IMG/VR virus record: IMGVR_UViG_3300043331_000919 | Coordinates: 15,507 to 79,506 of that record | DNA from: a virus | DNA: 64,000 bases | Direction: 5' to 3' (one strand) | Part shown: positions 56,037 to 57,419 of the stretch, piece by piece | Layout: each line of letters starts with the position of its first letter | How positions within the stretch are numbered: position 1 is the first letter of the stretch | Translations under genes and position numbers: made by a program | The notes under the pieces: generated by a model | The model's input: the letters and a program-made list of their open reading frames with translations, nothing else | Told to the model about the DNA's origin: nothing | Databases searched by the model: none

Positions 56037-56291
56037 GTGAACCACACCCCGCTGCTGCACCTCCTCGCCTGCAAGCTCCGCCGGCCGGTGATCCGGTTCT
56101 ACGACCCGACCGGCGGCGACCCGTTCCTCGGCGGCCCGGTCTGGTGGGCGGTCTGCGCCCACTGCCAGGAGCGGCTGACCGGTCGTCGCGCCGAGCGCGC
56201 GCTGGCCTACGCCCTCCGGGCTGCCCGCTACCGGGAGGCCCGGCGGCTCGCCGGGTGCGGCGACGAGACCTGCACCGAGGCCCACCCGTGA
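56037..56291 (+). CDS. Zinc-binding hypothetical protein
   Basis: CAHC; GCGDETCTEAH. Confidence 0.5.
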   Translation: MNHTPLLHLLACKLRRPVIRFYDPTGGDPFLGGPVWWAVCAHCQERLTGRRAERALAYALRAARYREARRLAGCGDETCTEAHP

Positions 56292-56551
56292 TCAGCGAGT
56301 CCGGCGACGGACGCCGGATCCTCCGACTCGCCCAGCGAGTGATGGTGGCGCCCCTCTCGCCCGCGGAGGCGGAGATCGCCCCCAAGGGCACCACGGTGCT
56401 CGTCGGCGCGATCGTCGGCTTCGAGAGGCGAGCCAACCTCACGCTCGTCGAGATCGAGCACGGCGGCTACTCCTGCATGATCCCCTTCCCGCGGGTCCGG
56501 ACGCTCGACCTGTCCACCCGGGCCGGAGCGGAGGCGTTCCTCGATGCTTAG
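56288..56551 (+). CDS. SH3-like protein, C-terminal tag (DLSTRAGAEAFLDA)
   Basis: GTGA overlap. Confidence 0.65.
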   Translation: MISESGDGRRILRLAQRVMVAPLSPAEAEIAPKGTTVLVGAIVGFERRANLTLVEIEHGGYSCMIPFPRVRTLDLSTRAGAEAFLDA

Positions 56552-56741
56552 GCCTGGACTGCTCGTCTACTACGACACCCCGTCGGGACGGGTGAAGGTG
56601 GGGACCATCACCCACATCACCGACTTCGAGATGGCGCACCTCCGCCTTGGATCCGCGACCTCGCTGATGGCCAAGGTGGCGGACCTGAGGCCGGTGGACC
56701 TGTCTAGTCGCCGGGGGGCAGAGGAGTTCCTCGATGCCTAG
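56544..56741 (+). CDS. KOW/SH3-like protein, C-terminal tag (DLSSRRGAEEFLDA)
   Basis: MLRPGLLVYY. Confidence 0.65.
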   Translation: MLRPGLLVYYDTPSGRVKVGTITHITDFEMAHLRLGSATSLMAKVADLRPVDLSSRRGAEEFLDA

Positions 56742-56961
56742 GCTCCGGGTCGGCCAGCCGGTCGTCGTCGACCACCACGGCCACCCCGATCTCCAGCAGG
56801 GCGAGGTGGTCTTCGTCTGCGCGGTGGGCCCTGACGGACTGAAGGCCAACGTCGCCCGCGGCCACTCGACCTTCGAGGCTGCGTTCACGATCCGCGCCAC
56901 CCACCTGAAGACGCTCGACCTGAGCACGCGCGCCGGCGCCGAGGAGTTCCTCGATGACTGA
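56734..56961 (+). CDS. KOW/SH3-like protein, C-terminal tag (DLSTRAGAEEFLDD)
   Basis: LRVGQPVVV. Confidence 0.65.
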   Translation: MPRLRVGQPVVVDHHGHPDLQQGEVVFVCAVGPDGLKANVARGHSTFEAAFTIRATHLKTLDLSTRAGAEEFLDD

Positions 56962-57199
56962 CTGGCGCAGCGTCTGCGGGAGGTGTGGCCGGACGATCGG
57001 CCGCGCCGCCCAGACGCAGACTCTCGAAGGCGTGACCGAGTGGGCCTACTTCGATGCGTCGAACGGCGAGGGCCTGTGCCGCGACCCGGAGCGACCGCGC
57101 CTGCCAGCCCGTCCGAATGTCGCCGTACGACGGCACTACCCGGTCGAGCTCCCGGACCTGCAGGACTCGACCGCCGTGGAGGAGTGGCTGGATGCGTGA
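56954..57199 (+). CDS. Zinc-finger protein, C-terminal tag (PDLQDSTAVEEWLDA)
   Basis: CGRCGRTI...C...H. Confidence 0.65.
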   Translation: MTDWRSVCGRCGRTIGRAAQTQTLEGVTEWAYFDASNGEGLCRDPERPRLPARPNVAVRRHYPVELPDLQDSTAVEEWLDA

Positions 57200-57419
57200 C
57201 GATCAGGTGCGGATCTGCGCGTACTGCGAGCAGCCCATCGTCCACGACCTGATCCGCGGCTGGCTGGTGCACCTCGGGGACTTCCGCCCCTCCAACGGCA
57301 TCGGGCGGATGTCGCGCTACTCGTCGCGATGCCGAGCTCGCGCCGGCCAGCGACTTCGACCGCACCAGCCCCTCGATCTTCGAGATCGGGTCACCGTGGA
57401 GGCGTGGCTCGACGCCTGA
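57192..57419 (+). CDS. Zinc-finger protein, C-terminal tag (DLRDRVTVEAWLDA)
   Basis: CAYCEQPI...C...H. Confidence 0.65.
   Translation: MRDDQVRICAYCEQPIVHDLIRGWLVHLGDFRPSNGIGRMSRYSSRCRARAGQRLRPHQPLDLRDRVTVEAWLDA

Follow-up and report, generated by a model that had tools for sequence, protein, structure and literature searches.

Organization of the mini-gene array

The window is a 64,000-nt stretch of the IMG/VR virus record IMGVR_UViG_3300043331_000919, and the phage is an uncultured high-GC soil actinophage. Within the rightward operon at 56037-59609 we identified five consecutive mini-genes (g1 to g5, 56288-57419, plus strand), all of which carry the same peptide tag at their C-terminus. 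This agrees with an earlier sequence-only reading of the DNA and rests on both inspection of the sequence and a tag HMM, the source of which was 19 tags taken by coordinates. The HMM scores for g1-g5 range from 20.3 to 25.1 bits, with each match ending 0 residues from the stop, and the C-terminal consensus E-[EA]-[FW]-L-D-[AD]-stop holds for all five proteins (5/5). The coordinates of the genes and junctions, and of two further groups of tagged genes in the window, are listed in Table 1.

The reading frame moves by +1 from each array gene to the next. As the sequence-only reading had noted, the internal junctions are 8-nt start/stop overlaps, and this applies to four of four. They have the form ATGnnTRR. 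At each of the four the ATG consists of the GAT that encodes the tag Asp and the G that follows it, and a GGAGG or GAGGAG(G) Shine-Dalgarno (SD) word lies 7-9 nt upstream of the ATG, within the upstream gene (4/4). The g4 protein, which begins M-T-D, opens inside the end of g3, with an 8-nt overlap with the g3 stop. The last gene of the array departs from the pattern in that the tag Asp of g5 is the common codon GAC, and a 17-nt spacer precedes the next gene at 57437. At the other end, the stop of g0 and the GTG of g1 overlap by 4 nt. The start of g1 is less secure than the starts of g2-g5. A scan of 52300-60200 found 0 promoter-like sites (sigma-70 consensus only) and 1 terminator-like site, which lies outside the array.

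Table 1. Positions of the array genes, their junctions and other tagged gene groups in the window
Feature	Coordinates	Strand	Description
g0	56037..56291	+	untagged Cys-rich mini-gene, 84 aa; opens the rightward operon; GC3 0.95
g1	56288 (GTG)..56551	+	87 aa; beta-rich body and F-type tag; 20.3 bits
g2	56544..56741	+	65 aa; F-type tag; ATG from g1 tag GAT + G, -8 overlap
g3	56734..56961	+	75 aa; predicted small beta-barrel of five strands, then a C-terminal helix formed by the tag (residues 66-74)
g4	56954..57199	+	81 aa; body with CxxC and W-type tag
g5	57192..57419	+	75 aa; body with CxxC and W-type tag
junction g1/g2	56530..56551	+	GGAGG 56530-34, ATG 56544-46, TAG 56549-51
junction g2/g3	56721..56741	+	GAGGAG 56721-26, ATG 56734-36, TAG 56739-41
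junction g3/g4	56941..56961	+	GAGGAG 56941-46, ATG 56954-56, TGA 56959-61; includes CGATGACTGAC
junction g4/g5	57178..57199	+	GGAGGAG 57178-84, ATG 57192-94, TGA 57197-99
second array	34797..35521	-	three tagged mini-genes of 48, 91 and 105 aa; junctions -8, -8, -4
tagged pair	39338..39947	-	95-aa gene with F-type tag; -14 overlap (ATG 39673); then 111-aa gene

Reading frames and start codons of the array

We take the mini-genes to be the real frames because their GC3 (0.83-0.92 in g1-g5) is higher than in the 389-aa ORF that runs antisense across the array (0.66). The source gene calls contain the exact proteins g2, g3, g4 and g5, and also the genes with starts at 35382, 35114 and 39673. All seven ATGs formed by GAT and G (7/7) open proteins that are present in these independent calls. 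The g1 protein with the GTG start at 56288 is absent from them.

The true starts could instead lie downstream, with no overlap between the genes, and the SD and ATG words would then be by-products of a Glu/Asp-rich peptide. A codon-score gene caller did favor GTG 56592 for g2 and GTG 57032 for g4, and rare codons are found among the first codons past the ATGs. Such an artifact of annotation is nevertheless highly improbable. The ATG made by GAT-G is the earliest start codon of the open frame in g2, g3 and g4, the source gene calls match the ATGs, and the distance from SD to ATG is 7-9 nt throughout. A start at 57032 would remove the CxxC motif of g4, and if the ATGs were not starts the enrichment of GAT described below would be hard to account for.

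Codon choice within the tag

The tag Asp is encoded by GAT in 8 of 13 tags, as compared to a genome-wide share of 7.8% (946 Asp codons; binomial p 1.2e-6). Rare codons are also overrepresented at the tag Arg (AGG in 3/6 vs 2.5%, p 3e-4) and the tag Ala (GCA in 2/5 vs 4.3%, p 0.017). Where they occur in the last six tag codons, the rare codons form a start or SD-like words exactly where the downstream gene overlaps. Common codons are found in tags that no downstream start overlaps, for example those of g5, 60118 and 37145, in which the Asp codon is GAC, and GAC is also used in 3 of 4 tags located N-terminally or inside genes. The exceptions are GAT in tag 28066, where no ATG is made, and in the N-terminal tag 17498. 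Transfer of a tag had been considered for the N-terminal tags at 16455 and 17498 and was rejected, the two proteins being paralogs.

Synonymous sites elsewhere in these tags are randomized, and GAT has therefore been kept by selection and not by recent descent. The sequence-only reading had described the tag as a dual-use element that encodes a peptide and, in the same bases, the signals for the next gene. As a description this stands, and the codon choice argues for selection on the double reading.

These observations suggest how the array may work. Each gene encodes a tiny body joined to the 15-residue C-terminal helix that is shared across the phage and ends in E-[EA]-[FW]-L-D-x. Given this ending and the 8-nt gene overlaps, selection has probably tuned the synonymous choice in the last six tag codons, such that the Glu-Glu or Glu-Ala codons supply GAGGAG or GGAGG and the rare Asp codon GAT, together with a last codon that begins with G, supplies the ATG. 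A ribosome finishing one gene would then meet an SD followed at 7-9 nt by an ATG, itself 8 nt ahead of the stop, and translation would be handed on to the next gene. In F-type tags, folding predictions indicate that the Glu-Glu and Phe-Leu codons can pair, and the resulting 4-5 bp hairpin over the SD would tie the downstream start to upstream translation. The hairpin is found in the minimum free energy structure of all five F-type junctions folded (5/5). The 80-nt junction folds are no more stable than shuffles (z +0.95 to -1.5), and the hairpin is therefore weak evidence. The array itself may have grown by tandem duplication with rapid divergence of the bodies, or by insertions at gene ends.

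Tags and junction types across the window

We counted ~27 tag occurrences, 20 of which lie within 6 residues of a stop. Spacing of -8 follows 6/18 tagged and 6/92 untagged genes (Fisher p 0.004; the gene calls are approximate). The 18 tagged genes with a same-strand downstream neighbor in the window exhibit several junction classes: -8 (n = 6), -4 (n = 5), -14 (n = 1), -19 (n = 1), short spacers (n = 2) and long gaps (n = 3). Some tags are extended by short tails, the codons of which form the SD. Needs at the DNA level, not docking, determine these tails and the final one or two positions of the tag. The junctions of other loci are also mixed. A spacer with its own SD follows 4 of 7 tagged genes in the relative L013, such a spacer with a separate GGAGG-type SD is present in 5/8 when L013 and L014 are combined, and L018 has further junction forms after its tags. 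The junction word CGATGACTGAC, which spans D-D-stop of one gene and M-T-D of the next, occurs 4 times against 0.14 expected, and two of these occurrences follow untagged genes. The mixed junction classes, the tails and spacers, and the occurrence of CGATGACTGAC after untagged genes show that the translation signals are not tied to the tag, and the claim that the tag is a module that carries them is not supported.

The sequence-only reading had placed the same junction at 35382, 35114 and 39673. This is correct for 35382 and 35114, which are -8 junctions, and not for 39673, which is a -14 variant: there GAT-G is followed by two more codons and then the stop. The 111-aa gene that starts at ATG 39673 has a W-type tag at its N-terminus. 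The second array is flanked by DUF6744 and a conserved 86-aa gene and is absent in 5/5 relatives.

Relatives of the array and contents of the variable slots

We found no close relative of the array in GenBank phages by DNA search or by tblastn with g3, and none in GTDB genome contigs. Searches of IMG/VR with g3, with the neighboring 265-aa and 554-aa proteins, with alignments of the F-type and W-type tags and with a DUF6744 alignment likewise returned no close relative; L005, from the g3 search, has no tag. A 5.8-billion-protein index queried with g3 returned only g3 itself. The relatives that were compared have 50-62% DUF6744 identity, which is too distant for the placement of breakpoints. 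Gene content is not invariant among them, as they hold 0-4 different mini-genes in the same slots. Among the relatives compared, only this phage has three tagged genes inserted directly after the DUF6744 end. The 'LDD' end of DUF6744 had been considered as a captured half-tag, and this was rejected, since the end type is conserved among the 120 homologs listed. The tag varies by lineage, with W-L, F-L and I-L forms.

A tag profile searched against 1.84 billion representatives yielded 9 matches, of which 5 are the phage's own proteins (g4 was recovered as P0004), 3 are repetitive unrelated proteins and one, the single external tagged protein, is 74 aa long (P0009). The IMG/VR match L006 was judged not to match the tag. 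A first metagenome scan gave 134 matching stretches, of which 0 survived confirmation, a filter that may be too strict for matches of 16 residues. A degenerate DNA pattern for the tag identified 5 loci in IMG/VR, with no arrays among them. Two of the 5 have a single tag-like helix near the end, in 230- and 299-aa proteins of other phages.

Bodies of the mini-genes

BLASTP detected no homology among the bodies of g1-g3, and searches of g1-g5 against Pfam and PHROGs gave nothing above cut-offs. A profile of other barrel-like tagged bodies gave no signal against g1-g5 (200 shuffles each), g1-g3 scoring no better than their shuffles. Since homology between the bodies is undetectable, duplication remains an assumption. 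The structural model of g3, for which the input alignment was g3 and 11 other tagged proteins, contains five strands and a helix (pLDDT 82.1), which makes g3 a candidate SH3-like small beta-barrel. In the PDB the model is matched best by NdhS, KOW and chromo-type barrels, though weakly (E 0.02-0.1, TM 0.45-0.64). For g4 an Atlas look-up gave a lead only, of HEWD type (score 0.90).

Origin of the array

The five genes probably represent a coupled run of small accessory genes, in which the double reading is a local and secondary adaptation to packing and no portable property of the tag. The arrangement is ordinary tight gene packing and belongs to the known -8 overlap class. The same junctions could in principle be inherited without any role in initiation, GAT included, if the array descends from one tagged gene, or from two (a barrel gene and a Cys-rich gene), duplicated in tandem long ago. 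The order of the genes is consistent with this, as the F-type tags adjoin (g1-g3) and so do the Cys-rich W-type genes (g4 and g5). A short motif just before the tag is common to g1-g3, g5 is similar to the 58721 gene (BLASTP, E 0.002), and the alignment of g3 with 11 tagged proteins led to a confident barrel model (pLDDT 82). Descent by itself is still an unlikely explanation of the junctions, in that GAT without selection would be expected to have given way to GAC (92% usage), just as the other synonymous tag sites have become randomized. W-type tags elsewhere also carry GAT-G junctions (35107, 57199), the source gene callers open ORFs at these ATGs, and the bodies have no detectable homology.

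A further proposal, made in the sequence-only reading, is that tag-coding DNA is a cassette crossover site at which bodies are added, deleted or swapped, the newcomers obtaining the docking helix and passing on the translation signals. The contents of the slots do vary: the MoxR-to-vWA slot contains 3 genes in this phage, none in L013 and 1 in L012, and the vWA-to-DUF6744 slot contains 4 in this phage, 2 in L013 and 1 in L012. The slot genes are without detectable homology between loci (E 1e-4), whereas identity in the flanking genes is 44-62%. L013 and L018 also contain tagged genes in tandem, and L012 has a gene homologous to the 39660 body that ends in a different tail (37% over 59 aa, E 3e-7). 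A PD-(D/E)XK nuclease and an AAA_24 ATPase are among the proteins of the phage. The insertion after DUF6744 stops at a tag, and the DUF6744 end is tag-like in peptide and has CTCGATGACTGA in common with F-type tags. The 'LDD' end is, however, native to the DUF6744 family, and the ends of MoxR and vWA are slot edges with no tag; the slot boundaries are gene ends, tagged or not. The tags at 16455 and 17498 share rare codons, but as whole genes these are paralogs. At the DNA level, synonymous codon identity among all tags is at the codon-bias expectation (296 vs 293.7 expected, of 524; 305 vs 326.8, of 482), as it is within the array alone (20 vs 23.6, of 44; 30 vs 30.9, of 43). No two tags share an in-register identical run of more than 19 nt, a length reached in 70% of synonymous resamplings, and past the junction the next genes show no continuing sequence similarity. 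The phage is present in soil runs X1-X4, where contigs are identical to the window wherever they overlap it and have no joints at tags; at a depth of 2-4x this is no evidence against variants. Two joints were listed in these runs, with sides of at most 21 letters, and are read as other organisms. All DNA-level tests run (synonymous identity, shared runs, soil joints and slot edges) were thus negative. Recombination at the tag DNA finds no support in them, and the cassette proposal is quite unlikely.

The same idea can be extended to a clade of soil actinophages, in which the short ends of the tags (12-22 nt) would be sites of crossover or template switching, with the result that units of body and tag are inserted, deleted or duplicated between coupled core genes, each unit being translated and docked at once, with the DUF6744 insertion and the five-gene array as products. 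We regard this extension as doubtful to a similar degree. A candidate crossover word of 12-22 nt is, for example, one common to the DUF6744 end and F-type tags. No recombinase or integrase was found in Pfam at E 1e-4 among 100 window proteins, a scan that begins after the first 15.5 kb of the record.

Comparison with known systems

Overlaps of -8 are described as one of three classes enriched in prokaryotes (Brown and Wade 2025, PMC12548453), and are said there to couple less well than -4 overlaps (PMC12548453). Coupled -8 pairs (NTGNNTGA; PMC12548453; Pallejà et al. 2009, PMC2784483) resemble the array in that the genes are co-directional and the SD is located in upstream codons. In the array, unlike these pairs, the upstream codons encode one conserved peptide tag that recurs on ~27 genes, and the same solution of rare GAT plus G and a Glu-Glu SD recurs at seven junctions, four of them consecutive.

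The PeSL cassettes of T4-type phages (Arbiol et al. 2010, PMC2839356; PMC4122927) are comparable to the tag in that a short repeat lies between small, non-essential, fast-changing genes. The PeSL repeat carries expression signals, and it has been proposed that modular shuffling proceeds by crossover at this element (PMC2839356). PeSLs are described as non-coding units of promoter and stem-loop that are conserved as DNA, with a role shown by comparison of phages ~96% identical in amino acids (PMC2839356). The tag repeat, in contrast, is coding and is conserved as peptide only, its DNA identity is at chance, and no promoter-like site was found.

Orphan cdiA-CT/cdiI modules, with the VENN motif (PMC7662968), likewise have a conserved peptide-coding stretch that borders variable modules, and occur in tandem arrays. 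The VENN-coding motif is thought to act as a site of homologous recombination (PMC7662968). In CDI systems a variable C-terminal toxin follows the constant part, and translation starts are usually missing from the orphans (PMC7662968). In comparison to CDI/Rhs systems, the constant part of the tagged genes is C-terminal, each array gene has an SD and a start, and no toxin/immunity pair is evident. Integron-type gene cassettes differ in that no site-specific integrase was matched among the 100 window proteins scanned.

Implications for the phage

The tagged mini-genes occupy hypervariable slots among the conserved MoxR, vWA, DUF6744 and RuvB-like genes. If the cassette reading were true, it would represent a new route by which phages recruit accessory genes. 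For annotation, these junctions fix the starts of many orphan mini-genes in the phage. Codon statistics alone can expose a double reading, through rare GAT, AGG and GCA codons placed where a start or an SD is required. The same 20 bases can encode a conserved peptide label and also hold the signals for expression of the next gene.

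Tag DNA carries the start signals of the next gene in a mini-gene array

The five mini-genes of the array (g1–g5) all end in E-[EA]-[FW]-L-D-[AD]-stop, the close of the tag, which is the phage's shared ~15-residue C-terminal helix (F-type or W-type by its aromatic residue). An HMM of the tag, assembled by coordinates from 19 examples, gives g1–g5 scores of 20.3–25.1 bits, each match abutting the stop, and finds ~27 occurrences genome-wide, 20 of them at most six residues from a stop and three N-terminal. The tag works at N-termini too. All four internal junctions of the array are 8-nt overlaps (−8) in which the last two bases of the tag Asp codon GAT and the G of the final codon make the next ATG, and GGAGG or GAGGAG lies 7–9 nt upstream of each, confirming the sequence-only reading of five tagged genes whose tags encode the Shine-Dalgarno (SD) and start of their successors. 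Three further sites had been assigned the same junction; two (35382 and 35114) are indeed −8, while the third, 39673, has a −14 overlap. Independent gene calls made by the sources contain exactly the proteins starting at the array ATGs (g2, g3, g4, g5) and at 35382, 35114 and 39673; g1 with its GTG start is absent from them. GC3 is 0.83–0.92 for g1–g5 as compared to 0.66 for a 389-aa antisense ORF over the array.

One contig from soil run X1 corresponds nearly exactly to the array. This is likely low coverage rather than a mobile unit, because both ends of the array are spanned, without change, by contigs of X1, X2 and X3. Elsewhere, a 111-aa gene overlapping the F-type tag at the end of its upstream neighbour begins with a W-type tag, so that two tags stand back to back; the second may be functional at the N-terminus or may be left over from a mini-gene since lost.

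Coordinates of the array and of other features (window positions unless a locus is named)
Feature	Position	Strand	Remarks
g1	56288-56551	+	87 aa; GTG start
g2	56544-56741	+	65 aa
g3	56734-56961	+	75 aa
g4	56954-57199	+	81 aa
g5	57192-57419	+	75 aa
X1 contig	56285-57418		1134 nt
N-terminal tag	16455-16505	+	rare codons TCT and TCA
N-terminal tag	17495-17548	+	rare codons TCT and TCA
Junction word CGATGACTGAC	35374, 35513, 48202	-	11 nt
Junction word CGATGACTGAC	56952	+	11 nt
Three tagged mini-genes	35521-34797	-	slot C
DUF6744 C-terminus	35514-35600	-	tag-like
Back-to-back W-type tag	39614-39673	-	start of 111-aa gene
Candidate portal protein	1662-3107		named by position and size
~40-nt direct repeats	53003-53236, 55171-55201		families D6/D7
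Variant tag end	L021:745-1077		..E-R-I-L-N-G
Tag-like helix proteins	L007:9377-10069, L008:9937-10836		230–299 aa; helix 9–20 residues from end

Codon choice in tags

Asp is encoded by GAT in 7.8% of 946 codons genome-wide and in 8 of the 13 tag Asp codons that follow Leu (p = 1.2e-6); 7 of these 8 form the next gene's ATG. For Arg before Trp, tags use AGG in 3 of 6 cases (2.5% genome-wide, p = 3e-4), each time placing AGGTGG 8 nt upstream of an overlapping start, ATGA or GTGA. GCA is used for Ala before Trp in 2 of 5 (4.3% genome-wide, p = 0.017); GCA-TGG contains an ATG, which is the start of the 105-aa protein P0007. Common codons are found in tags without an overlapping downstream start (g5, 60118, 37145) and in three of the four N-terminal or internal tags. 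Some tags have short tails whose codons are the SD of the next gene, as K-E-D written AAGGAGGA and G-G-D-G written GGAGGTGA, the latter including two rare Gly codons. The observation is real and statistically clear. Since the remaining synonymous sites within these tags have been randomised, it is selection, rather than recent common descent, that has kept GAT, and the double reading of tag DNA is selected. As a by-product, the last residues of the upstream tag set how downstream proteins begin (M-L-R, M-P-R, M-T-D, M-R-D, M-S-R).

Junction classes after tagged and untagged genes

In the window, 18 tagged genes have a co-directional neighbour, and their junctions are overlaps of −8 (6), −4 (5), −14 (1) and −19 (1), short spacers (2) and long gaps (3). 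After 92 untagged genes the classes are −4 (31), −1 (14), −8 (6), −14 (2), other overlaps (3) and spacers (36). The −8 class is enriched after tagged as compared to untagged genes (p = 0.004) and is not confined to tags. The junction word CGATGACTGAC, read as D-D-stop over M-T-D, has four occurrences where 0.14 would be expected: twice after tags and twice after untagged genes (DUF6744 and a gene ending at 48203).

In two metagenome loci with the same tag, L013 and L014, a spacer with its own GGAGG-type SD follows 5 of 8 tagged genes, one tagged gene has an ATG inside the tag (CGA-TGG), and ATGA is possibly used by at most two. In a third locus, L018, which has an F-L tag variant, the nine junctions vary as well: there are spacers, −4 overlaps, SDs within the final tag codons and one candidate GAT-G. 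Double reading is not a property of the tag itself. Both −8 overlaps and SDs within upstream coding sequence are known as general features of prokaryotic operons (PMC12548453, PMC2784483). In the proposal that the tag is a dual-use DNA/protein module, the dual use is borne out by codon selection at GAT; the module part is not supported, given the mixed junction classes after tags.

The phage and its relatives

The source record is a linear IMG/VR virus of 79,506 bases (the window being bases 15507–79506) with a completeness estimate of 81; G+C in the window is 69%. A Pfam scan of 100 window proteins matched two WhiB proteins, DUF4192, DUF7455, a DnaB-primase, an AAA_24 ATPase, a PD-(D/E)XK nuclease, a RuvB-like ATPase, an ATP-dependent ligase, a MoxR ATPase, a vWA protein and DUF6744, a gene set that looks actinophage-like. 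No DNA-level similarity to the window was found among GenBank phages, and the candidate portal protein had a single match (43% identity). A ~3.3-kb stretch without a confident gene (about 52.4–55.7 kb) holds 3–4 copies of a ~40-nt direct repeat with 83- and 106-nt spacing, possibly an origin or an array of regulatory repeats.

No relative with this array was found in GenBank phages, IMG/VR, a 5.8-billion-protein index or GTDB genome contigs, and the tag profile identified one external tagged protein among 1.84 billion representatives. With an alignment of 22 of the 173 DUF6744 homologs we gathered 12 metagenome loci. Tag-like ends, counted by C-terminal regular expression (controls 0–3), close 6/26 called genes in L013, 8/28 in L018 (variant ..D-I-E-x-F-L-N..), 1/4 in L014, 1/6 in L021, 0/21 in L012 and 0/9 in L016. 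Four small L012 proteins have acidic tails (..ESKED or ..TEED), perhaps another label. One protein in each of two unrelated IMG/VR phages (L007, L008) carries a tag-like helix, ..P-D-x-P-D-R-x-A-V-E-x-W-L...

The gene order is ligase, MoxR, slot A, vWA, slot B, DUF6744, slot C, RuvB-like. Slot A holds three genes in this phage, none in L013 and one in L012; slot B holds four, two and one, with at least three tagged genes in L018 and none in L016. No slot genes matched between loci at E 1e-4; flanking genes are 44–62% identical. In slot C, a conserved ~85-aa gene directly follows DUF6744 (−4 or −8) in 5/5 relatives (L012, L013, L014, L016, L021), and only this phage has three tagged mini-genes between the two.

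Proposed recombination at tags

The sequence-only reading had also proposed tag DNA as a crossover site at which recombination adds or swaps N-terminal bodies, with invariant gene content among relatives as the contrary result. Gene content proved far from invariant, the slots differing between relatives, and this keeps the idea alive. However, the slot edges are simply gene ends, and MoxR and vWA end without a tag. DUF6744 does resemble the last seven tag residues at its C-terminus, with the same junction word, but this end is native to its family, because the C-termini of 120 listed homologs form a helix ..L-Q/R-E-E/A-M-L-D/K-x; the tag might be derived from, or mimic, that helix. Scored at positions where two tags have the same residue, synonymous identity over all tags was 296 observed vs 293.7 expected of 524 in the 5' part and 305 vs 326.8 of 482 in the 3' part, and for the five array tags 20 vs 23.6 of 44 and 30 vs 30.9 of 43. 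It rose above expectation only in the 3' part of five F-type tags (48 vs 39.6 of 50), which is the selected GAT and CTC.

In register, no two tags share an identical run of more than 19 nt, a length reached in 70% of 2000 synonymous resamplings, and similarity ends at the junction without extending into the next gene. Rare codons are common to the N-terminal tags at 16455 and 17498, but the two proteins are adjacent PP-loop/PAPS-reductase-like paralogs and therefore the whole gene moved, tag included. In four soil runs the contigs are identical to the region where covered and contain no joints at tags, at a phage depth (2–4x) that gives this little weight. With synonymous identity, shared runs, junction extension and soil-run joints all negative, cassette recombination finds no support in the tests possible.

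The five proteins

None of g1–g5 matched Pfam or PHROGs. A g3 model based on an alignment of 12 small tagged proteins predicts a five-stranded small barrel, with the tag as its C-terminal helix (pLDDT 82.1); the nearest solved folds, with weak scores, are SH3-like barrels (NdhS, KOW, chromo/Tudor). CxxC motifs occur in g4 and g5, and g5 is similar to a tagged 56-aa gene at 58721 (E 0.002). In sequence, the bodies of g1–g3 resemble neither one another nor a profile built from other barrel-like tagged bodies, despite almost identical tags. The array may have arisen by old tandem duplication with fast body divergence, or by insertion of unrelated bodies. In one instance a body recurs with another tail: that of the 39660 gene has its homolog within a 174-aa L012 protein whose end differs.

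A model for the array and its place among known systems

Beyond the array anatomy and codon selection demonstrated here, we infer translational coupling, a role for an SD hairpin and co-production of the five proteins. A ribosome finishing one gene would cross the SD and ATG within its last 20 bases, and the next gene would then be started by hand-over or by a new initiation event on mRNA that has been opened. The Glu-Glu codons of F-type tags are complementary to the Phe-Leu codons, and a 4–5 bp hairpin over the SD is predicted in 5/5 folded junctions; the 80-nt junction windows are not more stable than shuffles (z +0.95 to −1.5).

As modelled, the array would work like ordinary −8 coupling. 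It resembles the PeSL cassettes of T4-type phages in having an expression-signal repeat between fast-changing small genes, but lacks the DNA-level conservation and promoter-terminator structure that define them (PMC2839356). CDI orphan modules joined at the VENN motif (PMC7662968) share the idea of a peptide-coding crossover site; their constant part is at the opposite end, and every array gene has its own start. The double reading is real but ordinary in kind: it belongs to a known overlap class and stands out here because a repeated tag supplies the upstream codons.
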